Of a DNA stretch of 64,000 nucleotides, positions 2,661 through 42,092 are shown piece after piece. Source of the stretch: an uncultured virus (IMG/VR IMGVR_UViG_3300021425_003921) (lineage: Duplodnaviria > Heunggongvirae > Uroviricota > Caudoviricetes); IMG/VR virus record IMGVR_UViG_3300021425_003921; one strand, written 5' to 3'. The translations under genes and the position numbers were made by a program. The notes beneath the pieces are model-generated. The model was given only the letters and a program-made list of their open reading frames with translations. It ran no database searches and was not told the DNA's origin. Positions within the stretch are counted from its first letter, which is position 1. Each line of letters opens with the position of its first letter.

Positions 2661-3236
2661 TTATAGTTTCTTACCCAAAAAGTAAGCCAAACCGAAAGCA
2701 GATAAAATTGCAATTGGCTTTGCATAAGATTTTCGGAAACTCAATCGAGATAAATACTCTGAATCGAATTCGAATTCGGGCATAATTTTAATTTCGGTTT
2801 GTAGTTCATCAAGACGGTTTGACAAGTCAGATTGTTGTCTTTTAGCAGTAAGGTATCGCATGGTTTTTTGCATTCCTTGAGATTCCATGTCTTTAATTTC
2901 ATCACTAAGATCTAAATACAAATTAAAAAGAGTTTGGAAATCTTCTTCATCATCAATAGAAACCATTTCTTCAATATAATAGGAAGTTGCACCTGTGGTT
3001 TCTGCAGAATAATCATCTTCAATCCATGCGTTATCACAATCGCCACAAATCATTTGCTCAAAATAATCTTTACTGCTGACAATATTATCACAAGAGCATT
3101 GTTCGCCGGGAATTAAATCATCTTCGCCACATTGGGAACAATAATAAACTTTAGTATAATCTACATCGTCAGAACCACATTGGTTACAAGGTATGTTGGA
3201 ATGGTGCCATTCACCACCAAATTTATGATAAGCCAT
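2661..3236 (-). CDS. Zn-ribbon, coiled-coil, tail-anchored protein
   Basis: CNQC, CSQC, CSC, CGDC; YSAE boundary; helical middle; C-terminal TM IAILSAFGLAYFL+GKKL. Confidence 0.8.
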   Translation of the reverse strand: MAYHKFGGEWHHSNIPCNQCGSDDVDYTKVYYCSQCGEDDLIPGEQCSCDNIVSSKDYFEQMICGDCDNAWIEDDYSAETTGATSYYIEEMVSIDDEEDFQTLFNLYLDLSDEIKDMESQGMQKTMRYLTAKRQQSDLSNRLDELQTEIKIMPEFEFDSEYLSRLSFRKSYAKPIAILSAFGLAYFLGKKL

Positions 3237-3245
3237 ATTAATTCC

Positions 3246-5207
3246 TCAGTAAGTTTGATAACCTTTGTTTTGCTTTTGATTCATTTTCTTTTGAGCATCG
3301 TTAATGGCTCGTTGAAGATCAGCAGTTTGCGTGATGTTAAACAAGCGTGGGTTTTGGCCTAAGCCTCCATAAGCACCCATAGCGGTGTAAACTCCGGGGC
3401 TTCGTTCCCATACCCAAACGGAATAAAATTTATTGGAACTTTCATCAGTTAGTCGAAGGAAATGTGGGCCCCATGTGCAATCACCCCATTTAAAACTACC
3501 ATAGTTAGCAGAAACAGCGTTTTTTACATTGGTTTTTTCTCGACTTAGATTAGCAGGGGCGGTGCTACGAGCAGCAAAGGTTTCAGCACTCATTTTCTTA
3601 GCAGCACGGCGAGCATAATCGTCAGCATCATCATAATCTTCGCCCATATCTATGTATTCATCAGCAATTACATCTGCTACGGTATTATCTTTAACTGAAA
3701 CCCAATCTTTATCTTCCCACATTACTTCCGCATCATATTCCCACTCTTCGTAAGTTTCGTAATCAGGTTTAGGCGAAATAATATCAAACATAAGAACTTC
3801 GTATTCAAATTCAACATCGATTTCGGTGGAACCATCACGGGGGTAAAAAGAGTCTTGTAATACGCCCTTCGGTTTTTGGTGAATCATTTCTTCAAACTCA
3901 TCTTCTAAAGAATCGTTGCACCAATTGTGAGCCCATTTCTCAAACTCTGCTTCGTATTTGGGATTAAGGGGTTGCAAGGTTTTCCACTTAAAATCAACTT
4001 CGAAATAGTAATCTTCCATTTCCGTTGTGGTTCTTCGACGCGTTCCGGATTTATTCAAAACTCCAATATCGCCATCGGCGGAATAATCTTCGGCTCGCCA
4101 AGTTCCGCTGGGAACGCCCATAAGGTCTTTAATATAATCAGAGGCTTGAGAACGATTCATATTATTTTTGACGGTGCCACCCAAATCATTGATTTTCCAC
4201 TTTTGTCGTTGGGTAATAGGATCGGAGTAAGCATTAAACTCGGCACCATATTCCCAATATTCTTTATCTTCGTAATCAACATCACCGACTTCAGTTTTAT
4301 CATCGAGTTGCCAATTAAATATGACTGTAATTTCATCAGAACCATCAGAAGGATAAAACTCTTCTTCCCAACCTCCATCTTCTTCTTCATTTTCAAGGGC
4401 TTCATCGAGGTTATGATCCATCCATTCCTCAATTTCTTGTTCAGCCCATTGTTCAATCTCTTGACGATATTTAGTATCTGCTTTTTTATAAGTTTCCCAA
4501 TCAACATCAACTACAATATCAAATCTTTGAACTTGAGTAACTTGTCGCCTTCCCGTGGTTTCAAGATAATGTCTATTATCGCCATCTATAATTTCTTCGG
4601 CGTTAAAACTCCAAGGTCCAATTTGAGCGTTAAATCGACCATCATCTTCAGCATGATATTTAGCAGGAACATGGCTATGAAGTTTCTTAGGACACTTAAT
4701 ATCTCCATTAAGAAGAACAACTTCATATTCATCCTTTTTGCCCTTGATAGGTTCTAAAGCACCACCGAGACCACTACAACGAATAACTAAACTGGGAGTT
4801 TTAAGTGATTCTACATACTCTTGAACCATAAGTTTCATGCTTCCGGGCATACTCTTAGAAGGTTGGGTAGGGAATTCTACAATAGCACCATATTTGGTTT
4901 TGGTAACCATGTGAACTCCAGCACGGTTGGTAGCATCCCACTTAATTTCATCAATCTTGTAAGGCCCATCTTGATAGGTAGCATAAAGACCACCACGGAA
5001 AGTTTTGTGACGAGCAAGATATTGTTGTTCGGTATTGTTTTGAGCGTGGGAAGAAGGGAAGTGTGCTACCATAGCGAATTCTCCGACTTCTACTTTGCCA
5101 GTATGCTTTAGTTCGGTAGGTAGCATTCGTAGATCCATCATGGTTCCAAAAAGGAAGCCAATGTTTTGTCCACCCAATTCTGATACTTCTGGTCGAGTCT
5201 TAGCCAT
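3246..5207 (-). CDS. Modular 653-aa protein with an internally duplicated acidic domain and a C-terminal WGR-like domain
   Basis: Two repeats (FYPSDGSDEI / FYPRDGSTEI, ending EYGAE / EYDAE); C-terminus SNKFYSVWV...YGGLG...KQNKGY matches the WGR-domain pattern. Confidence 0.75.
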   Translation of the reverse strand: MAKTRPEVSELGGQNIGFLFGTMMDLRMLPTELKHTGKVEVGEFAMVAHFPSSHAQNNTEQQYLARHKTFRGGLYATYQDGPYKIDEIKWDATNRAGVHMVTKTKYGAIVEFPTQPSKSMPGSMKLMVQEYVESLKTPSLVIRCSGLGGALEPIKGKKDEYEVVLLNGDIKCPKKLHSHVPAKYHAEDDGRFNAQIGPWSFNAEEIIDGDNRHYLETTGRRQVTQVQRFDIVVDVDWETYKKADTKYRQEIEQWAEQEIEEWMDHNLDEALENEEEDGGWEEEFYPSDGSDEITVIFNWQLDDKTEVGDVDYEDKEYWEYGAEFNAYSDPITQRQKWKINDLGGTVKNNMNRSQASDYIKDLMGVPSGTWRAEDYSADGDIGVLNKSGTRRRTTTEMEDYYFEVDFKWKTLQPLNPKYEAEFEKWAHNWCNDSLEDEFEEMIHQKPKGVLQDSFYPRDGSTEIDVEFEYEVLMFDIISPKPDYETYEEWEYDAEVMWEDKDWVSVKDNTVADVIADEYIDMGEDYDDADDYARRAAKKMSAETFAARSTAPANLSREKTNVKNAVSANYGSFKWGDCTWGPHFLRLTDESSNKFYSVWVWERSPGVYTAMGAYGGLGQNPRLFNITQTADLQRAINDAQKKMNQKQNKGYQTY

Positions 5208-5228
5208 ACCATAATATCGCCCTTACGA

Positions 5229-5237
5229 CTATTTATA
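5229..5237 (-). promoter_or_regulatory. TATA box TATAAATAG
   Basis: 22 nt from ATG at 5207. Confidence 0.85.
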
Positions 5238-5245
5238 GTTTTTGA

Positions 5246-6592
5246 TTACAAATAATCTGGAGAATCATCATCATGACGAATCAAACGCTTTTCTTTAGCA
5301 ACAATTTGGCGTTGATTTTCCAACTCGTTAAAAGCCGTTTCAATAATTTTATTGGATAATTTGGCTTGCTTTTCAGAAGCAATCATAATAGAAAGATTGG
5401 CTAATTCTCTAAGATAGGCTCCGGAATAACCATCAGTCTTTTTAGCCCACTTAGAATAATCTATGGTTTCTTGAGCCACCGATTCTAAATACTTGGAAAA
5501 GATTTTTTGACGAGAATCTTTATCAGGATAACCAAAATTAATTCGCACATCGAAACGACCGGGACGGTCTGCTAACGCCCAATCAAGATTTTGGGGATAA
5601 TTGGTAGTAGCCAAAGTAATAACTCCGTCATTTTCTTCAACACCTGCTAAACAATTTAAAAACTCTCCTAATAAGGGATGGTCAGATTCTTCTCGATCGA
5701 TACCGCCAAGAGTATCAATATCTTCAAAGACTACTAAAGAAGGTGATAAGAAACGAGCCAATTTATACAATTCATCAATTTGACTTCTTTCGGTGACCGC
5801 ATTACGAGTGACATAAATTACGGTGACATCAGTTTGATTAATCAGAATACTACAACACAGGGTCTTGCCTGTGCCCGGGGGTCCGGTAAGCAAAACTCCA
5901 CGACTTAATCTCATGTTGTAGTTTTTATAAGTTTCCATATTGTCAATAAAATTAAGGACATTGCGATTGAGGTGTTGTAAAGGTTCGGAATCAATAATAA
6001 TATCATCCCAAGAAACATCTTGATAATCTAAAAATTCAAAATCAGCAGTAATGGCTCGATTTTTATAAATTCCATGTTGTGAAAAATAATCTTTTAATTC
6101 GTTTTTCCAATGCGTATAATCAAAATTGCTGTCAGAACAAAAATGATACATAATATCAATTTCATAAGTGTCATAAGGATAAAATGTAATTACCAATTTA
6201 TGATCTCCAGACTTGTGTTCTAAATACATAGTCATGCGGTGAGGCACTTTAATACGAGTTTCTCCTTCAGGACATTTAATGCGTTCATCTAACCAAATAG
6301 GTGAGGCTTCAGCAGACATACGATTATTATAATTAGTAATCTTTTCAATTTGGTAATCTCGATTAATAATTTCCATCATAGCGTTGCCCCAACCCACATA
6401 GGCTTTGTTGTGATAATAATCACGCTTAGTTTCTACGGATGGTCCTAACCATTCTTTTATATGTTCATCTTGAATATCCATGCTGGTGGCTTTAGCGACA
6501 TAACCATAAACATTTCTAAGATTATCGGCGTCTAATTCTAAGGGGCCCATGGGTGAAGTAATGGTTAGTGGTGGTGGAGCAATTTCAGGCAT
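5246..6592 (-). CDS. Classical AAA+ ATPase (single AAA domain)
   Basis: Walker A GPPGTGKT, Walker B LVVFEDID, SRH ATTNYPQNLDWALADRPGRFD, GYSGAYL. Confidence 0.92.
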   Translation of the reverse strand: MPEIAPPPLTITSPMGPLELDADNLRNVYGYVAKATSMDIQDEHIKEWLGPSVETKRDYYHNKAYVGWGNAMMEIINRDYQIEKITNYNNRMSAEASPIWLDERIKCPEGETRIKVPHRMTMYLEHKSGDHKLVITFYPYDTYEIDIMYHFCSDSNFDYTHWKNELKDYFSQHGIYKNRAITADFEFLDYQDVSWDDIIIDSEPLQHLNRNVLNFIDNMETYKNYNMRLSRGVLLTGPPGTGKTLCCSILINQTDVTVIYVTRNAVTERSQIDELYKLARFLSPSLVVFEDIDTLGGIDREESDHPLLGEFLNCLAGVEENDGVITLATTNYPQNLDWALADRPGRFDVRINFGYPDKDSRQKIFSKYLESVAQETIDYSKWAKKTDGYSGAYLRELANLSIMIASEKQAKLSNKIIETAFNELENQRQIVAKEKRLIRHDDDSPDYL

Positions 6593-6626
6593 AAGTTACG
6601 ATATGGCGATGACTAATAAATACTTA

Positions 6627-7526
6627 TCAGTTATCATAAACAATACCACTATAACCAAATATGTTGGTAGAACCACAAAGTTGTGTCCATTGTTCTTCAG
6701 TTACTCCCTTAGGAATAACTTCGGGATTTAAACTAATATATTTTTCACGAGCCATTAAATTTTGTTGAAATTTTTCTTCGGCTTCTGAACCCCAAAGATC
6801 TTGACAAGGGTTTTGTCCTTTGTTAAAGAAACCACGAACTCCACCATGGACATCGCCTTGTAAATCATGAAAAGCACCTACAAAGTCAGATTGAGCAGTT
6901 AGAAAAACCTGATTAGTTTGACGATTATCTCCTAACATTAAAACCCAACAAGTTGTATCTTCTCCGGCATAAAGGTCTTCTGGAAATCCACCGACTTCTA
7001 AAAATCGAGAACGGGCTACGGCTACGGAAGAAGGGAAAACCGCATTACGCATAATCCAAACTCCGTGGGCGGAAGCAGGCCACTCGGCATGGTCAGCAAA
7101 ATAATTACAATATTTGTGAGATTCAAATTTATTTTTTGTGGTTTCCATAACAATAATAGTATCCATGGGATTCCACCACATAACATAATTGTTAGCAATC
7201 GGACAACGATCGATTAAAAGAGATAGTTCGTGAAGATGTTCTGGATACCACCAATCATCGCCATCGAGAAAAGCAATATAAGGATTATTTCCTTCAGATA
7301 CACCTTGATTACGGGCTTGAGATACTCCAGTTCCAATTTGACGACAATAATTAAAATTATAATGGGCAACTAAATTTTGACATTCGGCAGTATGTGTCCA
7401 ATCCAATGGAGTTCCATCAACTACATAAACTTCGTAATCAAAAAAATCTTGGTTGCTGACCGATTCCAAACATCGATTAAGTAATTCGGGAGTAATTTTA
7501 TAAATTGGGATTACCACATCAAACAT
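6627..7526 (-). CDS. Glycosyltransferase family 2
   Basis: VVIPIY, VVDG, GVSQARNQG, AFLDGDD, GED motifs; start moved to MFDVV at 7526, overlapping the upstream stop. Confidence 0.9.
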   Translation of the reverse strand: MFDVVIPIYKITPELLNRCLESVSNQDFFDYEVYVVDGTPLDWTHTAECQNLVAHYNFNYCRQIGTGVSQARNQGVSEGNNPYIAFLDGDDWWYPEHLHELSLLIDRCPIANNYVMWWNPMDTIIVMETTKNKFESHKYCNYFADHAEWPASAHGVWIMRNAVFPSSVAVARSRFLEVGGFPEDLYAGEDTTCWVLMLGDNRQTNQVFLTAQSDFVGAFHDLQGDVHGGVRGFFNKGQNPCQDLWGSEAEEKFQQNLMAREKYISLNPEVIPKGVTEEQWTQLCGSTNIFGYSGIVYDN

Positions 7527-8334
7527 TCCATTCACCGCCATTGATTCTAAACATAGACCATTCGTATAACTCGGCCGGTAAATCTTCGGGACACTCTTCG
7601 GAAAAATATTTTTCCACTACTACTTTCCGACCTTCTAAATCAACTATTTCATCAAGATCGCCGGGGGTTTGGGAACTAATAAACCCGGTAGAAGAATTAT
7701 CATGAATGCGATAATACCATAACGAATCAGAAATAATTTCAGTTCGTGGGCGTTTACTAAATAAATGCAATAAAAACTCCGTATCTTCCCATAAACTTAA
7801 AGATTCCATAAAAGGACTAAAAAGCGTCTTTTTAAGCGTAATTCCTGATAACCATAAGGGGCGACGATACATAAACCACAACATATGATTTAGATCGGCA
7901 TAATCGGTAATTAATTCGTGGTGATTTACCCATACCGGCCATTTGTCATGCTTTCCGGTTTGAACTGATTTTAAGACTCGATGACAATCACCTTTAGTAA
8001 CTGTAACATCGGCTTCAGGATAAGCCAAATCTACTTCTTCAAGATATGTGGGATACCACCAATCATCGCCATCAAGAAAGGCTAAATAATCGCCTTGTGA
8101 AGCACTTACGCCTTGATTACGGGCTTGGCTAACGCCTCGTCCTGTTTGACGAAGGGGTGTAATTCCAAAAGAATCGTAAACTGCCGTTAAGCGTTGATAA
8201 TGTTCCCAATCTACAGGGGTAGCATCAACCACAATTAGTTCCCAATCGGTGTAAGTTTGGTTAAAAACCGAACTAATAGCCTCGTTTACTAAATCAGGAT
8301 GAACCTGATAAAGTGGCATAATGATAGAAAACAT
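7519..8334 (-). CDS. Glycosyltransferase family 2 (paralog of neighbour)
   Basis: SIIMPLY, ELIVVD, GVSQARNQG, AFLDGDDWWYP, WED, YYRIH. Confidence 0.9.
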   Translation of the reverse strand: MFSIIMPLYQVHPDLVNEAISSVFNQTYTDWELIVVDATPVDWEHYQRLTAVYDSFGITPLRQTGRGVSQARNQGVSASQGDYLAFLDGDDWWYPTYLEEVDLAYPEADVTVTKGDCHRVLKSVQTGKHDKWPVWVNHHELITDYADLNHMLWFMYRRPLWLSGITLKKTLFSPFMESLSLWEDTEFLLHLFSKRPRTEIISDSLWYYRIHDNSSTGFISSQTPGDLDEIVDLEGRKVVVEKYFSEECPEDLPAELYEWSMFRINGGEWNV

Positions 8335-8355
8335 ATTGAATCCTAAGATTCAATC

Positions 8356-8547
8356 CTATTTATACCTATCGTGTAACTCGTCGGCAAGCAAATTGTTGCC
8401 GATGTTGAAACAGATTAAACCACACAAGGCGTAAATCAAGTGCCATTTTCGTCGATCTTGAGTAATGTTCCACAACTTATTAGTGTGGTAAACTGTGGCA
8501 AGACCGCCGAGAACAACAAATCCGACACCGATTAAGGCTAACTTCAT
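8356..8547 (-). CDS. Small two-TM membrane protein
   Basis: 63 aa; GGAGATGA SD; two hydrophobic stretches. Confidence 0.7.
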   Translation of the reverse strand: MKLALIGVGFVVLGGLATVYHTNKLWNITQDRRKWHLIYALCGLICFNIGNNLLADELHDRYK

Positions 8548-8565
8548 GATATCATCTCCACTTTA

Positions 8566-8636
8566 AAGCCATCTTCAGCGTTCCGTGTAGTCGAGCCTTA
8601 CGGCTGTAGACCACTCAACGCCTCATCAGAGGGCTT
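8566..8636 (-). ncRNA. Structured RNA hairpin with canonical kink-turn and GNRA loop
   Basis: Minus strand: AAGCCCUCU-GAU-GA-G-GCGUU-GA-GUGGUC-UAC-AGCC-GUAA-GGCU-C-GACUAC-ACGG-AACGC-U-GA-AGAUGGCUU; nested stems, 3-nt bulge followed by tandem GA/AG pairs. Confidence 0.7.
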
Positions 8637-8664
8637 CAAGCAGGTTGGATAGCGTCAGTTATCT

Positions 8665-9315
8665 TCAGGCTTGGGCTTGAAGTAGGCTTCGCTTATACCA
8701 GTCTACATTTCCTGGGTTGATGGAGATACCCATTTCCAACAGTTTGTTGGCGATGAGGGCATCAGGACCATCGTAAAGCGTATACTTGACGAAACATTGT
8801 AGTTCGTCAGGAAGAGCGTTACCCGTGGTGTTGGTGAAAGCACCTTGGTTGTAGTAGGTTACGAGAGCGTCCCAAACTTGACCTGGAAGAACATATACAT
8901 CAGGGTATAGGTTGAAGGAAGGTTGGAAGTTGATGCTTCGTGGGTAAGGTGAACCTGAACCTGGGATACCATCGTTAGGAATGTTATCAGGGTCGAGGAA
9001 GTAGTCGGTGGTGTTAATTCGGACTTGCACATAGGCACGAGGTCCAGCGACACCAGCAACACCCGTGCTACCCGTAAAGGTAGTTAGACCACGGATCTCA
9101 GTTCCTGCAGCGACAGCGGAGTGAACACCGAGGGAAGGTGTTACAGCGATGTCTTCAATAACGACGAATTCGGTTGCAGTTGTTTCAGCAGGCTTGGTAA
9201 TGTTGTTACCGAAACCACCAACAAAGATAGAGGTTCTCTTACCTAAGTTAGTAGCAACAGTAAGTGCGGTTCCACGGCTTGCGTCCCATTCATATACTTG
9301 GCTTCTCATTGACAT
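8665..9315 (-). CDS. Candidate major capsid/structural protein, paralog B
   Basis: Paralog of 9353-10000; beta-rich and T/G/P-rich; NNC-biased codons; SD GGAGATGA supports start at 9315 (MSMRSQ). Capsid role is inference. Confidence 0.6.
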   Translation of the reverse strand: MSMRSQVYEWDASRGTALTVATNLGKRTSIFVGGFGNNITKPAETTATEFVVIEDIAVTPSLGVHSAVAAGTEIRGLTTFTGSTGVAGVAGPRAYVQVRINTTDYFLDPDNIPNDGIPGSGSPYPRSINFQPSFNLYPDVYVLPGQVWDALVTYYNQGAFTNTTGNALPDELQCFVKYTLYDGPDALIANKLLEMGISINPGNVDWYKRSLLQAQA

Positions 9316-9352
9316 ATTTTTCATCTCCTAAATTATTAATTCCGTGTCGGAA

Positions 9353-10000
9353 TCAGGCTTGACCTCCAGCGACACGGGAGCGTTGTTGTTGTTCGATAAG
9401 GCTTCGCTTATACCAATCAACATTGTTGGGGTTGATGGTGACACCAAGTTCGAGCAACTTGTTAGCGATAAGAGCATCTGGACCATCGTAAAGCGTATAC
9501 TTGAGGAAGCAAGATACTACTTGAGTGGTGGTGGCAGTTGTTCCATCTCGGGAAGTGTAGAGAATTTGGAAAGTTTGACCTGGAAGGACATAAACATCAG
9601 GGTAAAGATCGAAAGACTTTAGGATGTTTTCTGAACCTGCGGAGGTGGAATCGACAGCAGTAGTATCGATGGTTGAAGGAGCACCACGAGGGTATGGGCT
9701 TGCCAATCCTGGGATACCGACCATATCGGTAACATCAGGGTTTTGGAAGTAATCCGTCGTGTTGATTCGGATTTGCACAGCACTACCGATTACGGGTGAT
9801 GCAGCAATATCTTCAATTACGATGAATTGGGTGGCGGTCGTTTCTGCGGGCTTGGTAATGTTGTTACCTACACCACCAGTGAACAAGTCGTATTCACGGT
9901 TTGCCGTGAGTGCGACCGGTTGGTCGGTTGATGTGCGTCGTAGTTGATTACTACTTGCTTGTAGGTTACTCCATTCATATACTTGGCTTCTCATTGACAT
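9353..10000 (-). CDS. Candidate major capsid/structural protein, paralog A
   Basis: Shares MSMRSQVYEW, NNITKPAETTAT, RINTTDYF, LYPDVYVLPGQ and KYTLYDGPDALIANKLLE...VDWYKRSL with 8665-9315. Confidence 0.6.
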   Translation of the reverse strand: MSMRSQVYEWSNLQASSNQLRRTSTDQPVALTANREYDLFTGGVGNNITKPAETTATQFIVIEDIAASPVIGSAVQIRINTTDYFQNPDVTDMVGIPGLASPYPRGAPSTIDTTAVDSTSAGSENILKSFDLYPDVYVLPGQTFQILYTSRDGTTATTTQVVSCFLKYTLYDGPDALIANKLLELGVTINPNNVDWYKRSLIEQQQRSRVAGGQA

Positions 10001-10004
10001 ATTT
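9971..10004. repeat. 34-nt direct repeat identical to 9286-9319 (5' ends of the two paralogs)
   Basis: ccattcatatacttggcttctcattgacatattt at both loci. Confidence 0.9.
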
Positions 10005-10047
10005 ATCTATCCTGCCTTAATGGCTAAGGTAGAGTTGTATTTTTGAC

Positions 10048-10056
10048 TATATAAAC
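10048..10056 (-). promoter_or_regulatory. TATA box of the candidate capsid operon (leadered transcript)
   Basis: TTTATATAGTC, 48 nt from ATG at 10000 instead of the usual 22. Confidence 0.7.
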
Positions 10057-10076
10057 TTTTGCCTTGTGGGTAAGGG

Positions 10077-10307
10077 TCAATAGTTTTTATTAGCGATATC
10101 AAGACCTTTCTTGGCTCCATAAAGAGAACCAACAGTCATTAGACTAAAGGCAACAATTTGATTAAGTTTACCAAAACGAATTCCTTGAGCAATTCCAAGA
10201 AGTCCGCCTAAAGATCCGACAAGAGCCGTAGAGTAAACAATAGAATCAAGAGAAGTAAAGCCCATTTCTTGATAATAAGAAATCGGGTTGTTAATCAAGG
10301 GTATCAC
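10077..10307 (-). CDS. Small two-TM membrane protein
   Basis: 76 aa, GTG start, two hydrophobic Gly-rich helices. Confidence 0.7.
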   Translation of the reverse strand: MIPLINNPISYYQEMGFTSLDSIVYSTALVGSLGGLLGIAQGIRFGKLNQIVAFSLMTVGSLYGAKKGLDIANKNY

Positions 10308-10309
10308 CC

Positions 10310-10918
10310 TTAGTAACCCATGGCTTTATACATTTCTTTGGCTTTAGCCATGTCGCCCTTAGCATCTCGGACACAGGATCGCCATGCTTGTTGCTTAGGA
10401 GATCCCGAAGTTTTTTTGACTTCAGTTACTTCAGCAGCCTTAATTGTTTCCGAAGCCTTAGAACCACAGCCACAGGCAGCGTAATAATCATCATGTTCGG
10501 CACAGAAAAGTGCTTCTTCGGCAGCAAGGTCTTCAGCAGAAATATCTTGAGGTAGTGGGAAAGTTCCTGGATCGAGACCCGAGATGGGTCGAATATCGAT
10601 GTAATCCATGATATCATCGCTGGCATCGTCTACATATTGAACGACGGTTTTTACGACGGGAACTTCAATAACTTCGCTAACAACAGGAACTTCTCGGGCT
10701 TTTCGGAGTAGAACTGCCAATCCAAGAGTTGCGGGGACAACACCTAAAATGCGTCCAACAGTAACGGCTTTTCCACCAAGATAAGGAATCATAGAGGGAA
10801 CTGTGGCGACACGGTATGAAAGAATATCAGCAAAGCGAGTGCTAAAAAATCCAAATCCGACGAGGAGGAGAGATCCTCCGACTGTATATTCATTAACAAT
10901 AGTGCTTCGCAAATTCAT
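10310..10918 (-). CDS. Two-TM hairpin membrane protein with acidic/Cys-containing tail
   Basis: GGTGA SD supports ATG at 10918; resembles 10951-11277; clustered ISAE, LAAE, FCAE, KASE, KAAE. Confidence 0.75.
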   Translation of the reverse strand: MNLRSTIVNEYTVGGSLLLVGFGFFSTRFADILSYRVATVPSMIPYLGGKAVTVGRILGVVPATLGLAVLLRKAREVPVVSEVIEVPVVKTVVQYVDDASDDIMDYIDIRPISGLDPGTFPLPQDISAEDLAAEEALFCAEHDDYYAACGCGSKASETIKAAEVTEVKKTSGSPKQQAWRSCVRDAKGDMAKAKEMYKAMGY

Positions 10919-10950
10919 AGTATCACCAAATTTTGTAGTGGTTAGTAAAC

Positions 10951-11277
10951 TCAACTACCGTAGTAGGTTGGGACACCGTTTCCGCTGCCACCTGCTGAGT
11001 CTTCGCCCCAGTTGTAGCCGGTTTCTGCGGCTGCTTCTTGAGCGATGTCACCAAGGAAAGGAATGTCCATTCCAAGGTATCGGCGGCTTAGGGTTACAGC
11101 ACCAACGGCAAGAGGAACTACATACATAAGAGTTCCAAGGTTTACATTGATGACGGGAACGGTGTAGGACATAACATCCGTGAACATTCCGCCAACAAGT
11201 CCGGCTGCACCGACTACGAAGAGTGAGGCTCCGACAGTCGTTGGGTTTACAAGGGTATTCATAATTGTGTTTAACAT
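10951..11277 (-). CDS. Two-TM hairpin membrane protein
   Basis: 108 aa; TATA at 11324 (47 nt away) plus GGAGAG SD, i.e. leadered like the candidate capsid operon. Confidence 0.8.
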   Translation of the reverse strand: MLNTIMNTLVNPTTVGASLFVVGAAGLVGGMFTDVMSYTVPVINVNLGTLMYVVPLAVGAVTLSRRYLGMDIPFLGDIAQEAAAETGYNWGEDSAGGSGNGVPTYYGS

Positions 11278-11335
11278 TTTTTATCTCTCCATTTGGGGGG
11301 TTATATTTTATTTTGCTTTTCCACTATATATATTT

Positions 11336-12322
11336 TTACATTCCGAACACGGAGCCATTTCCTTCGGCACCACGAACATGGTTTCCAATAGTAGTGGAGA
11401 ATAAGCCTTCAGCACCATAGTATTGAATGGGCTGACCGGGATTGACGACACGGTGAGATCCGAGAATGTAGGATTCTCCTGAATCTGCCGTAGTTGGAGG
11501 TTTCATATGGGGAGAAACTTCCTGAACCATTGGGTTTGGAGTTCCCATTCCCATAGTGGGTTCTTCGGCATTATAATTTACCGGGGGTTGATTAGGGGTA
11601 TAAGTAGACATAGTTAGAGGGTTGCTACGACCAAGGTTTTGAGCGTTAAGACCCATGGTGTCGGCAGCAGAAACATAATCTGACATTTCCATTTCGACAG
11701 GATTCATAACGGTGGTAGATTCAATCATGCTACCACCAAAGTTTTGGTCTACTCCACCCGTAGGAGTAACTACATCTTGAGCACCAAAGTCTTGAAAGAC
11801 TCCGTGACCAAGTGGTGCATCTTCGTGAACAGAAGACATAGGAAGGTTATCCATACCTCGTTGCTTGAGGCGTTCTGTGGAGGCTTCAGTATCCCAATCT
11901 TCAGCATTTTTGATATCAGAATAAGAGTGAGTAGCAGTTTCTTGACCAATAACAGATCCACTACCGGATTGAGGTAGTTCTTCAGCAGAATATTGTCCCA
12001 AAAATCCACCGATTCGTGGAGATACCATACCGGCTACTTGAACTACTGAGGAAAGGATAAGAGCCGTTCCTGCAAAGTTGAGGGCTTTTCCATAGCCTGT
12101 GGGTCGAGCACGAGAAGTAACAATTAGGTAACCACCTGTGAGAGCAGTAAGAGCAGTTCGACCTACTTCAGCCCCACGACCTAAGCGGTAAAAGGGAAGC
12201 ATAGTAAGAAGACCGCCGATAAAAGCACCTGCGACTAATCCAAATGCACCTGCGTAAGTTGATTCTTCAGTAAGGACATCAAAAGATTCGTCCAATGTTG
12301 ATGGAGCCATGTTATAATCCAT
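11336..12322 (-). CDS. Three-TM membrane protein with long low-complexity C-terminus
   Basis: Three N-terminal hydrophobic helices; tail with YSAE, KNAE, FGAQ, YNAE, YGAE, RGAE; TATA at 12344. Confidence 0.8.
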   Translation of the reverse strand: MDYNMAPSTLDESFDVLTEESTYAGAFGLVAGAFIGGLLTMLPFYRLGRGAEVGRTALTALTGGYLIVTSRARPTGYGKALNFAGTALILSSVVQVAGMVSPRIGGFLGQYSAEELPQSGSGSVIGQETATHSYSDIKNAEDWDTEASTERLKQRGMDNLPMSSVHEDAPLGHGVFQDFGAQDVVTPTGGVDQNFGGSMIESTTVMNPVEMEMSDYVSAADTMGLNAQNLGRSNPLTMSTYTPNQPPVNYNAEEPTMGMGTPNPMVQEVSPHMKPPTTADSGESYILGSHRVVNPGQPIQYYGAEGLFSTTIGNHVRGAEGNGSVFGM

Positions 12323-12357
12323 ATTATCACCTTTTCCTTTCGACTATTTATAGTTTA

Positions 12358-13191
12358 TCATAGTGAGCGACTATTTTTTCGCTGTGTATCGCCTGCCATT
12401 TTGGTAGGTGGGGCGATGTGTTGTCCAACTGGGTTTTGGTTAAAACCTTCTGCGTTTCGGAAAGCACCGCCATGAATGTGAGAGAGAGGAGTAGGAATAA
12501 CAGTATCGCCCATAAAGTGATCGGAACGAAGTTTCTTAACTCCGGAATATTCGGCGGCTAAATCCATTTCCATAACATTGCTTTGATTAAAAGTTTGAGC
12601 AGAAACCGGGGTTGTGCCCGCAAGGTCAGGAGCATCGTCGAATCGATTGGTTTCTAAAGTTTTTTGGTGTGCTCGGGCATCAATAGGGGCCAAAGCGGCA
12701 ACTCCTAAAGAAGCGACCATTCGCTTAACGGCTTCAGGAACAGGAGAAGTTTCAACTTCGGTAAGGAATCGGTGAGTAGCAGAAGTTCCAATTTTAGTAA
12801 CTACCACAGATTTTCGACCCCCGTTAGGACGACCCAAAAGTTTGTTAAAGAAACCTGAAAGACCTTCTTCGGGAATAAATTCGATTAAAGTCCATCGTTG
12901 AGGTCCGGGTTCATAGGTAACTTCGAAAGCACGACCATCAGCCGTAATAGATTCAGAAAGAGGTCCCAAATCAGGAACCATAACTTCTTGATGAACTGGT
13001 TTTGCCAAAGTCATATCAGAAATAGGGGCTGTAACTCCGACGGAATCTCCGAAAAGGCGTTGTTGAAGAGATCCGTTTTCAGTATAACTCTTGAGTTCGT
13101 ATTGAGCACCAAATGTGGAGGCAACGCCGTGCATAGCCGAGTCCATAGGACTACGCTTCAGGGTGTTTTGAATGGCAAGGTCCAAATTCAT
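12358..13191 (-). CDS. Hypothetical protein
   Basis: 277 aa; TATA at 13213 (22 nt) overlapping the upstream stop codon. Confidence 0.8.
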   Translation of the reverse strand: MNLDLAIQNTLKRSPMDSAMHGVASTFGAQYELKSYTENGSLQQRLFGDSVGVTAPISDMTLAKPVHQEVMVPDLGPLSESITADGRAFEVTYEPGPQRWTLIEFIPEEGLSGFFNKLLGRPNGGRKSVVVTKIGTSATHRFLTEVETSPVPEAVKRMVASLGVAALAPIDARAHQKTLETNRFDDAPDLAGTTPVSAQTFNQSNVMEMDLAAEYSGVKKLRSDHFMGDTVIPTPLSHIHGGAFRNAEGFNQNPVGQHIAPPTKMAGDTQRKNSRSL

Positions 13192-13216
13192 AATATTATC
13201 TCCGTGTCTCTACTAT

Positions 13217-14068
13217 TTATACTTTTGTCCATCTACGCATAAGAAGAATCGGAATCACAACTGAGGAAATTCCCGAAATACCTACTACAACAGGAGTGGC
13301 CCAAGAATTACCTTTAGAAATGGTGATAACTTCTGGAGTATCAGGAACCATAGGAGGATAAGGTGAAGAAACCAAATCGGTAGTAATCATGTCAGTAGCA
13401 GGAACCAAATTAACAATTTCGGCAGCCGGAGCCATGGTTAAATCTTGACGAGTGGCTTCTAAATCTAATCCTCGATAATGGGTTTGTGACCAAGTAGCCG
13501 CCGCAATTTGAATTTTTCGAGGAAAAACAACGGCATCTTCATCTAAGGAAACGGTGTTATATCCTGCCGAAGCCAAATTAGCGATAACTCGGGCTAAACA
13601 TAGTTGGCCTTGATGATATCCGGGGTGTCCGAGGGCAGGGAATAACCATGCTTCATATTCAGCAGGCAACATTTGGGCTACTTTAGATGATAAGCCATAG
13701 GCTTCCTGAGCCGCCATAATTTCCTCGGCTTCAAATTGGGGAACTTCGGGTTGTGGTGCCAAGGGGGTGTCCACAGCAGATTCAAAGTTAATACTTTCCC
13801 CTGCCGGTTCAGAGTCTAATGCTGAAGCATCCGTCATTTCTTCTAAAGAAACTTCTTCCATAGATTCATCGGTGACACCATCTTCTCGATCTTCTAAACC
13901 AGCCATCACGGCTTTGGCTTTAGACATAGCACCCATAGCCATATCGGTAGCAGGAGTAGATTCATCAGCCTCGGTAGAAGGCACAGATTCTTTGACATCT
14001 GCATCAACATTAGCAGCGTCTTCAATCTCTTCTTTGAGACCGGCTAATTCAGGACTCAGATCTTCCAT
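13217..14068 (-). CDS. Tail-anchored protein with acidic N-terminal region
   Basis: Acidic ~115-aa N-terminus ending FEAE; C-terminal TM VVVGISGISSVVIPILLM+RRWTKV; TATA at 14090. Confidence 0.8.
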   Translation of the reverse strand: MEDLSPELAGLKEEIEDAANVDADVKESVPSTEADESTPATDMAMGAMSKAKAVMAGLEDREDGVTDESMEEVSLEEMTDASALDSEPAGESINFESAVDTPLAPQPEVPQFEAEEIMAAQEAYGLSSKVAQMLPAEYEAWLFPALGHPGYHQGQLCLARVIANLASAGYNTVSLDEDAVVFPRKIQIAAATWSQTHYRGLDLEATRQDLTMAPAAEIVNLVPATDMITTDLVSSPYPPMVPDTPEVITISKGNSWATPVVVGISGISSVVIPILLMRRWTKV

Positions 14069-14099
14069 AGAAGATAATTAGTCATTCTGCTATTTATAT

Positions 14100-14597
14100 T
14101 TATCCATGGATAGTCCAAATCGCCCCTTCAGAAATTTTATCAAAATCAACGGTGTGAAGAGGCACGGGGCCAAAAGAAGATGATAACAGATTGGCTAAGG
14201 GTTCAAGAGATTGAAAAACATGAACATAAGGGGCTACCTTGGCTTCGATAGGATCGTGGTCGGAATTAATAGGTTCTAATCCGACGATAACAATTTCTAC
14301 GCCATTTAAATCTACGGAAGATAGTAAGCGAGTAACTTGATAATTTTCATTTCGTGGGTCGGGTTGCCCCACGACTAATTGAGCCGCCGTGACACGGACA
14401 CCTTCGGGGCCGTGAAAACCAGAATAAACATATCCAGTAATTTCTGATAATTCTTTGACATCAAAGAAAGAAGGAAAGGCTACGGAATTGTTGCCCCAAT
14501 AAACATAATCTAAGGAATCGATATCAAAGGATTCCGTAAGATCGTCGGCTACGCCTTGCTCGGCATAGTATTTTCTAAACTTATCATTGATATCCAT
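14100..14597 (-). CDS. Hypothetical protein
   Basis: 165 aa; TATA at 14620 with inverted repeat 14598-14616. Confidence 0.8.
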   Translation of the reverse strand: MDINDKFRKYYAEQGVADDLTESFDIDSLDYVYWGNNSVAFPSFFDVKELSEITGYVYSGFHGPEGVRVTAAQLVVGQPDPRNENYQVTRLLSSVDLNGVEIVIVGLEPINSDHDPIEAKVAPYVHVFQSLEPLANLLSSSFGPVPLHTVDFDKISEGAIWTIHG

Positions 14598-14616
14598 ACC
14601 GAAACTATGTTTCGGT
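14598..14616. promoter_or_regulatory. Inverted repeat between TATA box and start codon (candidate operator)
   Basis: accgaaac-tat-gtttcggt; near-identical copy with a compensatory change at 25803-25821. Confidence 0.7.
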
Positions 14617-14629
14617 CACCTATTTATAA

Positions 14630-15361
14630 TTATTGTTTCCAATACCAATAATCTTCAGCCCTTTTAGTGGATTTAGTATCCCGAGCCCAACGGTGAACAC
14701 CATTTTTATTCTTTTTGACTTCCCACATGAAACCATCATTACCACGCTTTCGAGTTCCTACTTTGGTAGCCGCAGCCGATTGGCTGGGGCTGGGGCGAGC
14801 CTTTTGAGTGGCTTTAGCCTTTGGTTTCTTTGGCTTAGCGATAGGTTTAGAAGCATTAGATTTGAAAGCGATTTGGGTAACGGGTTTAGACCAATAACCT
14901 GCTTCATCATCATTACTACCAGTAGTAAAAATAAGACGATACTCGTTTCCTTTATTCATTAAAGCCGCACAACCTCCCAATTCGCCCAATGAAAGTGATT
15001 CTAAGTTATAGTCCCAATTCCAATTACCAAGCAAGAAATATTCAGAAGCGTTTGTGGTATTCCACATCTTTACTTTCTTTTGACCCCACTTCTTTCTGAT
15101 GTCAGCATCATGGGATTTGAAGGCTTTCTTGAGTTGGCTGGAATGTTCTTTCAGAATCTTGGTGGATTTGGCTAAACCGACATTTTGGTAACCGTATCCT
15201 GAAAATCCTATTTCTTTCCAACCCTGTTTTTCCATCTTGCCAATAATATCAAAGGCTTTTTGAATCTGTTCCATCTGTCTTTTTTCACAGCCTTGTGAAT
15301 CATCAGAGTCTTTGTTTGACCAATCGCTGATCCACATACCGTTTTTCTTATGGAGTGTCAT
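14630..15361 (-). CDS. Basic protein, paralog of 51169-52191 (candidate DNA-binding/core protein)
   Basis: DDEAGY motif, K/A/P-rich linker, C-terminal GTRxRGNDGFMWEVK...RWxRDTKSTKRAEDYWYWKQ; TATA at 15383. Confidence 0.8.
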   Translation of the reverse strand: MTLHKKNGMWISDWSNKDSDDSQGCEKRQMEQIQKAFDIIGKMEKQGWKEIGFSGYGYQNVGLAKSTKILKEHSSQLKKAFKSHDADIRKKWGQKKVKMWNTTNASEYFLLGNWNWDYNLESLSLGELGGCAALMNKGNEYRLIFTTGSNDDEAGYWSKPVTQIAFKSNASKPIAKPKKPKAKATQKARPSPSQSAAATKVGTRKRGNDGFMWEVKKNKNGVHRWARDTKSTKRAEDYWYWKQ

Positions 15362-15402
15362 GCAAGGATGTTGTCCTTATGACTATTTATATTTTTCTAT
15401 AA

Positions 15403-16791
15403 TTACTTTTTAAGCAATTTCATACCAATAACTGCGAGAACGGCTCCGGCACCAGCCATAGCAAGAGGGCTACGATACATTGGTGGTCGGTATCGGAGAG
15501 ACATTCCATCAACCGTATCGGCAAGAAGCATCATAAAGTCGTCAGAAGAGATGTATTCTCCGGAATCCATTTCGTCAATAAATTCGTAAGGTTGGTAATC
15601 CATAGGCTCTGCCGCATCTACCACAGATGGTGTGGCTTCGGCACGGCGAACCATAGCATCGCCTTGGTTTCGGAAACCGACAGGTTGTTGAGTTTTAGCA
15701 CTATTTCGAAGGTCGGCCTTGATAGAATTGCTAACTCCAACATTGCTAATGAATTGTCCTTTAGCGTTGCGAGCCACATATCGAGAGTTGCCCTTGATGT
15801 GATCGAAGCGTTGTCGCTTTCCGTATTTTCGCTTGCGGCCTTGAGCAGCGAAATTGGTTGGGAAATCTTCGGATTCCAATTCAGCACGATAATGGATTTC
15901 GTGATCATAATCAGCACCGGCTTGACCGACGGCTTGAGTAGTCATAAGTTGTGAATCAGCACCGAAGTGAATATCAGTAGGTGGCACGGAAGCAGAAGAA
16001 TAACCATTTTCTTCAAATTGAATAATAGCGTTAGAAGTTTCAGATTCCATCTTCATCTTTTTACGAGAAGGTCGGCGTTTAATAGCACGAAGTTTAGATT
16101 CCATACGACGCTTTCGCTTAAGAGCAAGTTTATCAGCAGGAGTCATATCACCTTCTGCAAAGAGATTAAGAGAAGTATCCAATTGGTCGGTAATTAGTTC
16201 GGAGCCTGAGGCTGCTTCAGTAGTAGGATTCATCATAAGAGGTTCGGAAGCATCAAGAGCGACATCAGCCGGGGCTTCGGAAGCATAAGATTCAGCAGCA
16301 TTAATTTGTCCCAATTCAGATTGAAGTTCTTCAACCTTGGTTTTGATAGCAGATTCATTATCGAAAATAAATTCGTTAATCATGAATTCGCCGGGGGAAG
16401 AAGTTGCCATATCTTTAAGTTCCTCAAATGTGGTAGCAGCGGGATCGGCTTGTCGCATAACATCGCCACCCGTTTCGTAACCAGACTTTTGGCCTTTGGT
16501 ATACATACGACGAATAACTGTTCCTGCGGAAACTTGTCCTACAATAACGACATCGTTTTGAGATTGAATAGCCACAGGGGTAAAACCGTGATTATCAGTT
16601 TTATCAGTTACATAGAATAAAGCACAGCGATATAGTTTAGCACGGTCGGTTTCGTCGCCCATGGAATCGTATTGTGATTTGGGTAGCGTCCAAGTGTTTT
16701 TGTAGAACCCTGTGGAATCATCTTTAGTGCTGTTATCAAAGCCCCAATAATCTTCTGAAAGGATGTATACCATCTTGTGATTTGTTGCCAT
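15403..16791 (-). CDS. Modular tail-anchored protein with basic modules
   Basis: Alternating acidic and Arg/Lys-rich modules separated by LFAE, MESE, FGAD, YRAE, FAAQ, RRAE; C-terminal TM LAMAGAGAVLAVIGM+KLLKK; TATA at 16813. Confidence 0.8.
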   Translation of the reverse strand: MATNHKMVYILSEDYWGFDNSTKDDSTGFYKNTWTLPKSQYDSMGDETDRAKLYRCALFYVTDKTDNHGFTPVAIQSQNDVVIVGQVSAGTVIRRMYTKGQKSGYETGGDVMRQADPAATTFEELKDMATSSPGEFMINEFIFDNESAIKTKVEELQSELGQINAAESYASEAPADVALDASEPLMMNPTTEAASGSELITDQLDTSLNLFAEGDMTPADKLALKRKRRMESKLRAIKRRPSRKKMKMESETSNAIIQFEENGYSSASVPPTDIHFGADSQLMTTQAVGQAGADYDHEIHYRAELESEDFPTNFAAQGRKRKYGKRQRFDHIKGNSRYVARNAKGQFISNVGVSNSIKADLRNSAKTQQPVGFRNQGDAMVRRAEATPSVVDAAEPMDYQPYEFIDEMDSGEYISSDDFMMLLADTVDGMSLRYRPPMYRSPLAMAGAGAVLAVIGMKLLKK

Positions 16792-16823
16792 ACTATTTAC
16801 TCTCCTGCTTTACTATATATATT

Positions 16824-18818
16824 TTACTGTCGTAAACGATTTCGGAATCTTTCTAATAACGACGGAGAACCATCTCCTTGGTCACGGAAACCGGGTGGGG
16901 CCCATGTTTGAGATTTTCGGCGTCGGTCCATAGCAATACTACGACCTACATCTACATTTTTCATATAAGTTCCATCTCGTCGTCGGCGGATAAATCGGCG
17001 GTTACCCCATCGATCGATAGCAATTTTTCGTGGATTGCCGTAGAAAGGTCGAGGACCTAATTCATTATATCCTGTTTCAGCACCAAACTTTTCTCGGATG
17101 TGTTTGGGGGTAGAGTTGAGTATGGACTTTAGTTTAAGACGAGTTCCAGAAGTTAAGTATTCTCCTTCACCATCTTCGTCTACAAATAGACTATCATACC
17201 AAAATTGATGTTCGTGATGAGGTTCGGCATCATTTCCTGTATGATATTTCCACATTTCAATAATTGTGGTTTCATCAGGATTGCCCAAAAGCCAAGCCTT
17301 TTCTTGATTCTGTAGTAACTTAGCACCACCAGATTCGGCCCGCTTTCGCTTAGATAATCCGGGTGTGCCATCCATAGGTCGCCAATTAGCCATTTCTCCA
17401 AACTCCATAGGATCCATAACAGGGGTGTTACCTTCTTCGGAGGCTAACTTGTAAAAAGCAGAAGTTTCGTATTTTTTAGAACAGGGCTCACAATAAAAAT
17501 CATTTTGCATTTGTCCACCATATTCAGAAACCTTGGGATTTTCAAAATCATCATCGATAATTTCCCATCGAATAACACTATCTTGGAAGTTATACTTGGC
17601 AGGCTTGCCACAATAATCGCAGGGATATTCGGGTTCGTCTTCTTCCTCAGCAGACTTTACGGGAGCACAGTCACGGCAGATTGGTTCCTCATCATCTTTT
17701 GTGCGAGTCATGTTTTCGGATTGGTCAGAACACCAATCACAGTAAGGGACTCCACATTCTACACAAGACACGGTATCATAATTGTCAATATAATTTTGAC
17801 AGGCTTCGCAACTGTTCATATCTTCCGCACAACTATTACAGATTTCATGAGCCGCCATTCCTTCAGGATGTTGGCGGTTGGAACATTTAAAGCAATAAAC
17901 ATAACAACCACGACAAACATTACCTTCTTTGGTGTCGGTCATTTGCCAATCTTTATCGCCACAAACACTACATTTACATAAGCAACAATCATCGCAACGG
18001 TCACAATCGCTACAATAACAGGCTCCGCAACCGTCTTCAGCACAGTCAGAACATTGAATTGGGTCATAATCTTCTAAGTTTTCACCACAAGAAGAACAAC
18101 CTTCATCTTCAGCGTTAGCGAAAACCGTCATATGTCCTGAAGAATTAAGTGAGGATTTGTCAAAATCTCCTGAGCCCCAAGTAGAAGTGAGTTGATCTGT
18201 AGACAAACCGATACCAGAAAGAGCACCGCTACCCGCATACGGGGCTTCTTTGACTTCGGAATAAACGGAGACACGATAATAGCCTTCTCCTTCGGGACCA
18301 TCTTCATCATAAATCCACTTAGAACTGCAAGCCTCACAAATGTTATCTTCGCCCTCAATGTCGCCATCGGGATTGGGTAATCCTGTAATATAGCAATCGG
18401 GGCCTTCGGCTTCTTCTGACCACTCTAAAAAGTCAATACCATCTAAATGGCTGTCTTCACAAGTTTCGCCTTCAGCACCGTAAGATTCTGCTTTATATTT
18501 TCGATTATAAATGGAATAGGCTACAGCAATTGCCATTTTTTGTGCGTCTTTTCGAGTAGGTGGTCGGTTTTTTCCGATCTTACCGGTCTTTTCCCAAGTG
18601 TGCATAATATCGCTAATGATTTTGGAAATTTGGGTGTTTTTCTTTCGCTTGCTGGCGGAAACTGTTTTACGAGGTGCCTCAAAAGAATCAGCACTCATTT
18701 CCTTTCGCTTTTGAGCAATCTTTTGTTGGCGAGCCTTTTTCTTTCCTCGCAACACACGAGTTCGAGGACCTGTGCTTACCCATGGAGGTTTGCTATAATT
18801 ACTCCACTTGTCAGCCAT
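16824..18818 (-). CDS. Modular Cys-rich (multiple CxxC) protein with basic terminal modules
   Basis: More than a dozen CxxC pairs; basic N- and C-terminal modules; boundaries at YKAE/YGAE, ANAE, KSAE, LASE, KRAE, FGAE. Confidence 0.8.
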   Translation of the reverse strand: MADKWSNYSKPPWVSTGPRTRVLRGKKKARQQKIAQKRKEMSADSFEAPRKTVSASKRKKNTQISKIISDIMHTWEKTGKIGKNRPPTRKDAQKMAIAVAYSIYNRKYKAESYGAEGETCEDSHLDGIDFLEWSEEAEGPDCYITGLPNPDGDIEGEDNICEACSSKWIYDEDGPEGEGYYRVSVYSEVKEAPYAGSGALSGIGLSTDQLTSTWGSGDFDKSSLNSSGHMTVFANAEDEGCSSCGENLEDYDPIQCSDCAEDGCGACYCSDCDRCDDCCLCKCSVCGDKDWQMTDTKEGNVCRGCYVYCFKCSNRQHPEGMAAHEICNSCAEDMNSCEACQNYIDNYDTVSCVECGVPYCDWCSDQSENMTRTKDDEEPICRDCAPVKSAEEEDEPEYPCDYCGKPAKYNFQDSVIRWEIIDDDFENPKVSEYGGQMQNDFYCEPCSKKYETSAFYKLASEEGNTPVMDPMEFGEMANWRPMDGTPGLSKRKRAESGGAKLLQNQEKAWLLGNPDETTIIEMWKYHTGNDAEPHHEHQFWYDSLFVDEDGEGEYLTSGTRLKLKSILNSTPKHIREKFGAETGYNELGPRPFYGNPRKIAIDRWGNRRFIRRRRDGTYMKNVDVGRSIAMDRRRKSQTWAPPGFRDQGDGSPSLLERFRNRLRQ

Positions 18819-25013: not shown

Positions 25014-25802
25014 CTATTTATTGATTGAATAATCAGGATAATAAGTAGTGGGCAAACGGTCTAAAAGCCCTAAAGAGTCTAAAAACCCGGTAACAGGATA
25101 GTTAATAGTAATTCCAAGAATTTTATTATCATCCCAAAGTGGATAAGGATTAAGATAATTGACTGGAAGATAAAAATCTCCGGGTTTATTTTGTAGATCA
25201 GCAAGGTTTTTGTGATGATGATTATCATATTCTCGTTCATTGTAAGTTACATTATCTGCTGAAACGATAAATCCGGCTCCTAACTTGGGTTTAGATTTTC
25301 CTTTAAACTTATAATTGCGATTGGTAAAACCGGGGGTTCCGACAACAAACTTAGGATCGTAATCAGAAAAATTTTTTAAATCAGGAACAATAAAATTGGC
25401 AGTAGTTTGCCAACGAACTGAAATAGCATAAGTTTGTTCTTCGGCAGCAAAAAGTAATTGTTGCGAGGAGCCTTCAGGTTTGAGAGGTTTTACCGATTCT
25501 GAAGATTTGGTAAGAGGAATCCACCTTTTAGGAGTAGTTTTAGTAGACCATGCTACGGGACCCCATAACAACGCATCATAAACTGCAATTTGCATTCCGT
25601 TGCGAGAATTAATCATTAAAGAGCGAGGCTGTCCGTCTTTTTTAGTAGTTTTTCGAGCATAAAAATAAAGAGGATATTCGGCAAACAATTCTAATTTGGT
25701 GGTAGAATAAAGAGCCAACCATTCTTCATCAGATAATTCATTAAAATCTTCAAAAGGTATTTTTAGATCTGAGGGTATAATATAAGCCTCACCGACATTC
25801 AT
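25014..25802 (-). CDS. Hypothetical two-domain protein
   Basis: 262 aa, FAAE near midpoint; TATA at 25825 with inverted repeat. Confidence 0.8.
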   Translation of the reverse strand: MNVGEAYIIPSDLKIPFEDFNELSDEEWLALYSTTKLELFAEYPLYFYARKTTKKDGQPRSLMINSRNGMQIAVYDALLWGPVAWSTKTTPKRWIPLTKSSESVKPLKPEGSSQQLLFAAEEQTYAISVRWQTTANFIVPDLKNFSDYDPKFVVGTPGFTNRNYKFKGKSKPKLGAGFIVSADNVTYNEREYDNHHHKNLADLQNKPGDFYLPVNYLNPYPLWDDNKILGITINYPVTGFLDSLGLLDRLPTTYYPDYSINK

Positions 25803-25821
25803 ATCGAAATTATGTTTCGAT
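25803..25821. promoter_or_regulatory. Inverted repeat (candidate operator), same family as 14598-14616
   Basis: atcgaaa-ttatg-tttcgat followed by cacctatttata, as at 14617-14628. Confidence 0.7.
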
Positions 25822-25842
25822 CACCTATTTATACATTTACAA

Positions 25843-27000: not shown

Positions 27001-27039
27001 AGTTATCGTTGAGCGTTTCTACTATATGTAATTTTCTGA

Positions 27040-28077: not shown

Positions 28078-28088
28078 TGTTATCCATC

Positions 28089-31930: not shown

Positions 31931-31968
31931 GTGATGAGTTTATCATCACTACTATATTAAGTTTTTGG

Positions 31969-36321: not shown

Positions 36322-36322
36322 C

Positions 36323-38449: not shown

Positions 38450-38489
38450 AATTATTATTGGGTGAGTCCAACTATATAAAACTTCGCAC

Positions 38490-39960: not shown

Positions 39961-39985
39961 AACAATTCCTTATTATCCATCATAT

Positions 39986-40477: not shown

Positions 40478-40488
40478 ACTAATTCACC

Positions 40489-41280: not shown

Positions 41281-41311
41281 ATACTTTTTTAATCGCTTCA
41301 ACTATTTATAT

Positions 41312-42088: not shown

Positions 42089-42092
42089 GGTA

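Follow-up and report, generated by a model that had tools for sequence, protein, structure and literature searches.

Paired paralogous proteins with a predicted jelly-roll fold as candidate major capsid proteins of a large archaeal virus

RESULTS

Two tandem paralogs in an uncultured virus genome

The stretch of DNA analysed here (the window) comprises bases 1-64000 of the IMG/VR virus record IMGVR_UViG_3300021425_003921 (G000), which is 74,005 bp long and has no end repeats. It carries two head-to-tail open reading frames (ORFs) on the minus strand, A and B, for which an earlier, sequence-only reading had proposed that they are tandem paralogs of about 215 amino acids (aa) acting as paired single jelly-roll major capsid proteins. 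Both ORFs are present (Table 1), and BLASTP aligned their products with 115/246 identities (47%, E 6e-67), in identical blocks interspersed with indel-rich loops, as had been described.

Two longer relatives, G001 (160,342 bp) and G002 (166,176 bp), have inverted-repeat ends of 99 bp and ~3.46 kb, respectively, and G000 is largely colinear with their middle part (~29-95 kb of G001). CheckV put their completeness at only 65% and 61%. The expectation of a genome much larger than those of known viruses of this type therefore holds for these relatives, which with their inverted terminal repeats (ITRs) reach about eight times the genome size of the portoglobovirus SPV1.

The start of B was placed at MSMRSQ; the in-frame ATG at 9324, directly after the AGGAG sequence, is probably not its start. 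B has a good Shine-Dalgarno (SD) site (AGGAG) and A a weak one only (CAGGA). A TATA-like ATAGT box lies ~50 nt upstream of the ATG of A, compared with ~25 nt in leaderless-type genes, and because of this additional distance of ~25 nt the A transcript looks leadered. The proposal of a leadered mRNA with SD sites was thus supported by the AGGAG of B and the box spacing of A, and less by the weak SD of A. The accompanying statement that most units are leaderless was only partly borne out, since the strict ATAG[TC] motif was found 22-28 nt upstream of only 23 of the 78 ORFs of at least 100 aa (an SD-like motif precedes 31 of them).

Table 1. Position of the features discussed in the text. Positions without a prefix refer to the window.
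Feature	Position	Strand	Remarks
A, capsid protein candidate	9353-10000	minus	215 aa; predicted single jelly roll (residues 1-172) and two C-terminal helices; FG loop long, DE loop short
B, paralog of A	8665-9315	minus	216 aa from the MSMRSQ start; DE loop long, FG loop short
A-B spacer	9316-9352	minus	AGGAG, SD-like site of B
Putative TATA-like promoter and putative leader of ~25 nt with weak SD	10001-10060	minus	From the spacing in other genes
HerA/FtsK-family ATPase	25843-27000	minus	385 aa, C-terminal membrane anchor; candidate genome-packaging motor
E, distant paralog of A and B	49548-50054	minus	168 aa, low codon bias; candidate minor capsid component
1084-aa protein	46247-49501	minus	Spike or vertex candidate; its C-terminus matches the C-terminal block of A/B
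159-aa jelly roll	L009:17797-18273 (G001 97797-98276)		Three copies in G004
PolD DP2 of G001	L010:6627-10190
PolD DP1 of G001	L113:254-1585
TBP of G001	L005:15740-16378
TFB of G001	L119:127-1107
PCNA of G001	L006:11072-11806

A and B form an old and strictly conserved pair

A search for relatives of A at E<=0.001 retained 1,563 of 1,757 candidates (protein clusters at 90% identity), a profile search collected 279 family representatives at 50% clustering, and the search tool estimated occurrence of the family in ~710 metagenome stretches. No match was found in Pfam, PHROGs or GenBank phages, and PDB sequence searches gave nothing meaningful. B directly follows A in all four IMG/VR loci and in 67/67 further loci whose sequence continues downstream for 800 nt or more; of the 83 loci examined in total, 79 contain B and the other four end within 63 nt of A. 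These 83 loci were the best-scoring 80 of 555 metagenome hits plus three contigs of metagenome-assembled genomes (MAGs), so the sample favours close relatives.

The sequence-only reading had also noted an identical 5' segment of 34 nt in A and B and had suggested recent duplication or gene conversion. The segment is present and comprises 4 nt upstream and 30 coding nt. A recent duplication of a single capsid gene, with B redundant, would account for it, and the synonymous identity of A and B in the window (0.63) is slightly above that of most cross-genome pairs (0.40-0.65). However, in 70 complete pairs the orthologs of A are 62-100% identical to A of the window (median 85%) and the orthologs of B have a median identity of 81%, whereas A and B of the same pair are only 51-58% identical in every case. 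In a tree of 34 selected rows, 14 A rows and 14 B rows fell into separate groups (support 93/83 and 90/75); the A/B pair of locus L004 was unresolved. Since ortholog identity exceeds A-B identity and the tree separates the two proteins, the sequences indicate that A and B are old, strictly paired paralogs. A recent origin is very improbable and is refuted for the lineage of the window, save for local gene-conversion tracts, of which an 80-nt tract identical between A and B in L004 is an example. The gene-conversion half of the suggestion thus fared better, although constraint contributes too: A of locus L002 opens with the same 30 coding nt, and we attribute the 5' identity to constraint and occasional gene conversion. 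In L004 (record G004), further paralogs lie directly behind A and B (L004:11499-13453), one of 431 aa with a long N-terminal extension.

Predicted fold and distribution of variable loops

Structure prediction returned a single jelly roll for A, and the capsid protein VP4 of SPV1 (PDB 6oj0) was its top match in three PDB fold searches. In a Foldseek search of BFVD, SPV1 VP4 came sixth in a list of small jelly rolls without names. The proposed capsid-type jelly roll is therefore in accord with the predicted structure of A; for B, which entered that prediction as one row of the alignment, the same fold is suggested by homology. P23-77 VP16/VP17 were not among the matches listed for A in two fold searches, which excludes nothing. 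In the ESM Atlas the nearest named families were the PM2 P2_N/P2_C clusters, whose values of 0.77-0.78 are below the lead threshold and were not counted.

We assigned strands B-I from the DSSP string according to the standard jelly-roll topology, and conservation was scored across 118 sequences of A and B. No indels occur in the N-terminal strand, in the CD, EF and GH turns or in either helix, where conservation is 0.90-1.00, and length variation is confined to the BC, DE, FG and HI loops and the tail. The two proteins carry reciprocal insertions: the DE loop measures 5 aa in all A sequences and 27-39 aa in those of B, whereas the distal FG loop measures 14-26 aa in A sequences and 6 aa in all of B. 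In a jelly roll the BC, DE, FG and HI loops share one end of the barrel. With all length variation at that end, the predicted model shows the pattern that upright barrels should produce if their base is fixed on the membrane side and their outer face is free to vary. The reciprocal insertions, together with the strict pairing, hint that A and B alternate within capsomers.

Codon bias and conservation

Codon bias was measured as the share of C-ending codons in six two-codon families, in the 78 ORFs of at least 100 aa. B (0.70) and A (0.61) ranked second and third, compared with a mean of 0.29 (SD 0.14), in agreement with the NNC bias noted before. In G001, A ranked 8 and B ranked 2 (of 144), and in G002 their ranks were 2 and 1 (of 150). 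Other paralogs have low bias: three in G001 ranked 88-117 and two in the window scored 0.18-0.21, a contrast that fits major versus minor components. A and B are ~75-80% identical between G001 and G002 and are among the most conserved genes; it is from codon bias and conservation that their 'major' status is drawn. Contigs of four metatranscriptomes cover both genes, which we count as presence only: the summed contig depth (21-649 for A/B, at most 36 in other bins) cannot rank genes and was given no evidential weight.

Two small paralogous membrane proteins are encoded upstream of A (10310-11277). The ORF at 10951-11277 has the top codon bias in G000, and its homolog ranks 1 in G001 and 3 in G002; its product is a candidate abundant virion membrane protein.

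A HerA/FtsK ATPase and the search for other capsid genes

The ATPase gene listed in Table 1 encodes Walker A/B, arginine-finger and sensor-type motifs, and its product matches HerA structures and DUF87 and ends in a hydrophobic anchor. It is conserved in 4/4 related records and may package the genome. An HK97-type capsid gene elsewhere in the genome, which the sequence-only reading had named as grounds for abandoning its proposal, was not detected: HK97 capsid PF05065 and portal PF04860 were found in 0/5 records and PF03237 (Terminase_6N) in 0/4, with positive controls. PF18628, used to look for double jelly rolls, was found in 0/5 records, its control being positive nowhere; A and B are separate single-barrel ORFs. 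Pfam revealed no head-tail hallmark in 140 of the 144 G001 ORFs of at least 120 aa, and PHROGs revealed none in 94 of them, except for phrog_2666 on the HerA ATPase, a weak tail-fibre match and a holin match; very divergent homologs could have escaped these searches. No other capsid family was detected in the Pfam/PHROG scans and marker searches.

An alternative is that A and B are abundant structural jelly rolls outside the shell (turret, spike, cement or surface fibre), the particle being enveloped or built of another protein. Among the lower-ranked fold matches of A are turrets, Ena endospore fibres and a phage cement protein, which would suit this view, as would the many acidic tail-anchored proteins and the ArsA/Get3-type ATPase of the genome and the fusion of one family member to a ~1000-aa protein. 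On the other hand, A and B are conserved to a degree unusual for spikes, their codon bias is at the top of the range, the barrel base is invariant, the best fold match is a major capsid protein and no second capsid family came to light. We therefore consider a non-shell role unlikely and favour A and B as paired major capsid proteins of a large tail-less archaeal virus, with a probability of about 0.75. Two observations weigh against the favoured assignment: the HerA/FtsK ATPase matches a PHROG labelled terminase, and most conserved ORFs are still without a fold prediction.

Other family members and neighbouring genes

The family has six members in each of G001-G003: A and B, another tandem pair, a ~170-aa protein and a ~1000-aa protein that bears the C-terminal block of the family. 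The second pair is located 13-17 kb downstream of A/B, beyond the left end of G000. Beside it lies a gene of high codon bias for a 159-aa protein, found in 4/4 related records and predicted to be a separate jelly roll (pLDDT 81.8); its fold matches tie (SPMV 9.1, HDT1 8.7, SPV1 8.6), and profile comparison detected no relation to A/B (probability 0.5%). It is a vertex (penton) candidate, a role assigned at a guess.

In all four IMG/VR loci the capsid pair is followed by genes for an AAA ATPase and one or two GT2 glycosyltransferases; in the window, an AAA ATPase, GT2 glycosyltransferases and a pyruvyl transferase are encoded at 5246-8334 and 41312-42088. An assembly chaperone and capsid glycosylation are possible roles. 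Beside the HerA ATPase, a conserved region (27040-38449) encodes three large unknown proteins, a protein with a vWA domain and one of 1447 aa that has an AAA lid domain. A hydrophobic segment is present in 22/98 ORFs, in many of them C-terminal, and the ArsA/Get3-type ATPase is encoded at 44704-45702 of this genome rich in such ORFs. The ORF at 54082-55776, of high codon bias, encodes an Asp-rich TSP3-repeat protein that is secreted or anchored; its N-terminal 155 aa are 83% identical to the G001 copy. Finally, the pattern [FYW]xAE, which was picked after the data were seen, occurs 24 times in the window ORFs (shuffle mean 9.5, maximum 19 of 100), 52 times in G001 (22.8) and 48 times in G002 (21.8). 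It is concentrated in acidic, often tail-anchored proteins (window 2661-18818 and 25014-44367) and could be a maturation cleavage or docking motif.

Replication genes, host and occurrence

G001 encodes both subunits of PolD (DP1 and DP2), PCNA, TBP, TFB, a primase, an MCM-like ATPase and a class II reductase, a gene set that points to an archaeal host. One A homolog derives from a 'Euryarchaeota archaeon' MAG. The TBP homologs carry Thorarchaeota and Bathyarchaeota MAG labels without pointing to one host, and Poseidoniales are not indicated. Three GTDB matches lie on contigs of bacterial MAGs (two of Rickettsiales, one of Acidiferrobacteraceae); we take these to be binning errors, given the archaeal TBP, TFB, PolD and PCNA of the relatives. 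The virus-group contigs L023, L024 and L025 in bacterial GTDB MAGs, up to 136 kb long, are probably contamination. The stretch 5000-14000 was partly present in 20/22 listed runs from 19 studies (seawater, marine, salt-marsh or freshwater metagenomes), one of which is possibly the source of the window DNA.

DISCUSSION

Comparison with known systems

Portogloboviridae have a single jelly-roll capsid protein of the VP4 type, which the predicted fold of A resembles. SPV1 has a circular genome of 20,222 bp, one hexamer protein and no identifiable polymerase and, according to the accessible text of PMC8812541, no packaging ATPase. In contrast, the window belongs to a 74-kb fragment whose relatives are linear, with ITRs, two co-dominant paralogs and four more, a HerA/FtsK ATPase and both PolD subunits, which does not agree with the circular ~20-kb genome of that family.

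Singelaviria are exemplified by SH1, HCIV-1 and HHIV-2 (VP4/VP7) and P23-77 (VP16/VP17). Their capsid paralogs differ in the outer loops, by analogy with turrets, as A and B appear to do. The accessible parts of PMC8812541 and PMC8328091 describe two single jelly-roll major capsid proteins and a FtsK-HerA packaging ATPase for Singelaviria/Helvetiavirae. The predicted jelly roll of A, its homolog B and the HerA/FtsK ATPase resemble this arrangement. By its genes and predicted fold, the virus is built like Singelaviria but nearest in fold to SPV1, and it is placed in neither group here. The architecture proposed at the outset is thus partly supported, by the jelly roll predicted for A and the presence of the ATPase; its capsomers and membrane are putative.

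Borgs, as large linear elements of archaea with several jelly-roll capsid-like genes, are the closest precedent, and for this reason the pair is not categorically new. The available portion of PMC12660748 describes Borgs and mini-Borgs as linear archaeal elements of large size, in which several jelly-roll capsid-like paralogs form highly expressed clusters, the proteins being reported as nearest HCIV-1 and particles not being shown. The element could therefore be a Borg-like extrachromosomal one whose jelly rolls coat vesicles or compartments instead of forming infectious virions: like Borgs, G001 and G002 are large and linear, with inverted repeat ends and several jelly-roll paralogs, and G001 carries cell-like genes (PolD, TBP, TFB, PCNA). 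We regard this as quite improbable, since the HerA/FtsK ATPase is conserved, the records belong to a viral collection, the gene set includes a full replication module, and the nearest fold is that of SPV1, not HCIV-1. Borgs are tied to Methanoperedens and were set apart here by their published descriptions, not by Borg sequences.

Magrovirales, marine head-tail viruses of the archaeal Poseidoniales with double-stranded DNA genomes of ~100 kb (PMC11706807, in the text available), are Caudoviricetes with a major capsid protein, portal, terminase and PolB; head-tail hallmarks of this kind were not detected here. Charybdis elements (~4.6 kb in the accessible text of 10.1101/2025.08.03.668216) are distinct from this virus. 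Archaeal viral genomes up to 188 kb have been catalogued (PMC13465236), and the tables of that source, beyond its accessible part, may list these records. Literature searches, with most subscription papers beyond their reach, found no description of this virus group.

A working model of the capsid

If A and B are the major capsid proteins, two jelly-roll barrels would stand upright on an internal membrane. The CD, EF and GH turns, the N-terminal strand and the C-terminal helices would form the shared base and the lattice contacts, with the variable BC, DE, FG and HI loops facing outward. A and B would alternate in (pseudo)hexameric capsomers, the FG insertion of A interlocking with the DE insertion of B; we slightly favour such hetero-capsomers over separate homo-capsomers. 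The four low-bias paralogs and the 159-aa jelly roll may occupy special positions (vertices, spikes), and the HerA/FtsK ATPase, anchored in the membrane, would drive the linear genome into a procapsid that has already formed. At a rough guess from the dimensions of SH1, such a particle would measure 110-140 nm.

Implications

The virus may belong to an undescribed high-rank 'giant' single jelly-roll lineage of ocean archaea, in which an SPV1-like capsid gene was duplicated independently of the SH1/P23-77 type and the two-protein lattice was enlarged to hold genomes of ~160 kb; we give this reading even odds. If true, a lineage with its own PolD replisome, TBP and TFB would mirror, among archaeal viruses, the way in which the genomes of eukaryotic giant viruses expanded. 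It would be abundant at sea and missed by marker surveys, and would possibly form a bridge between the known icosahedral archaeal viruses and Borgs.

Known membrane-containing single jelly-roll viruses are small, and most of them were found in hot or hypersaline habitats. Should A and B form the shell, the same architecture would also build particles for ~160-kb genomes in ordinary seawater. The family is large, yet no Pfam or PHROG model covers it. Since the pair can be aligned by eye and has reciprocal loop insertions, it offers a natural test of the step from one to two capsomer proteins, proposed (in the accessible text of PMC8812541) to lead from a single SPV1-like capsid protein to two-protein capsomers. 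The A/B pair is a specific marker for finding the particles and the host, and the virus would be a tractable comparison on the question of whether Borg-like elements make virions.
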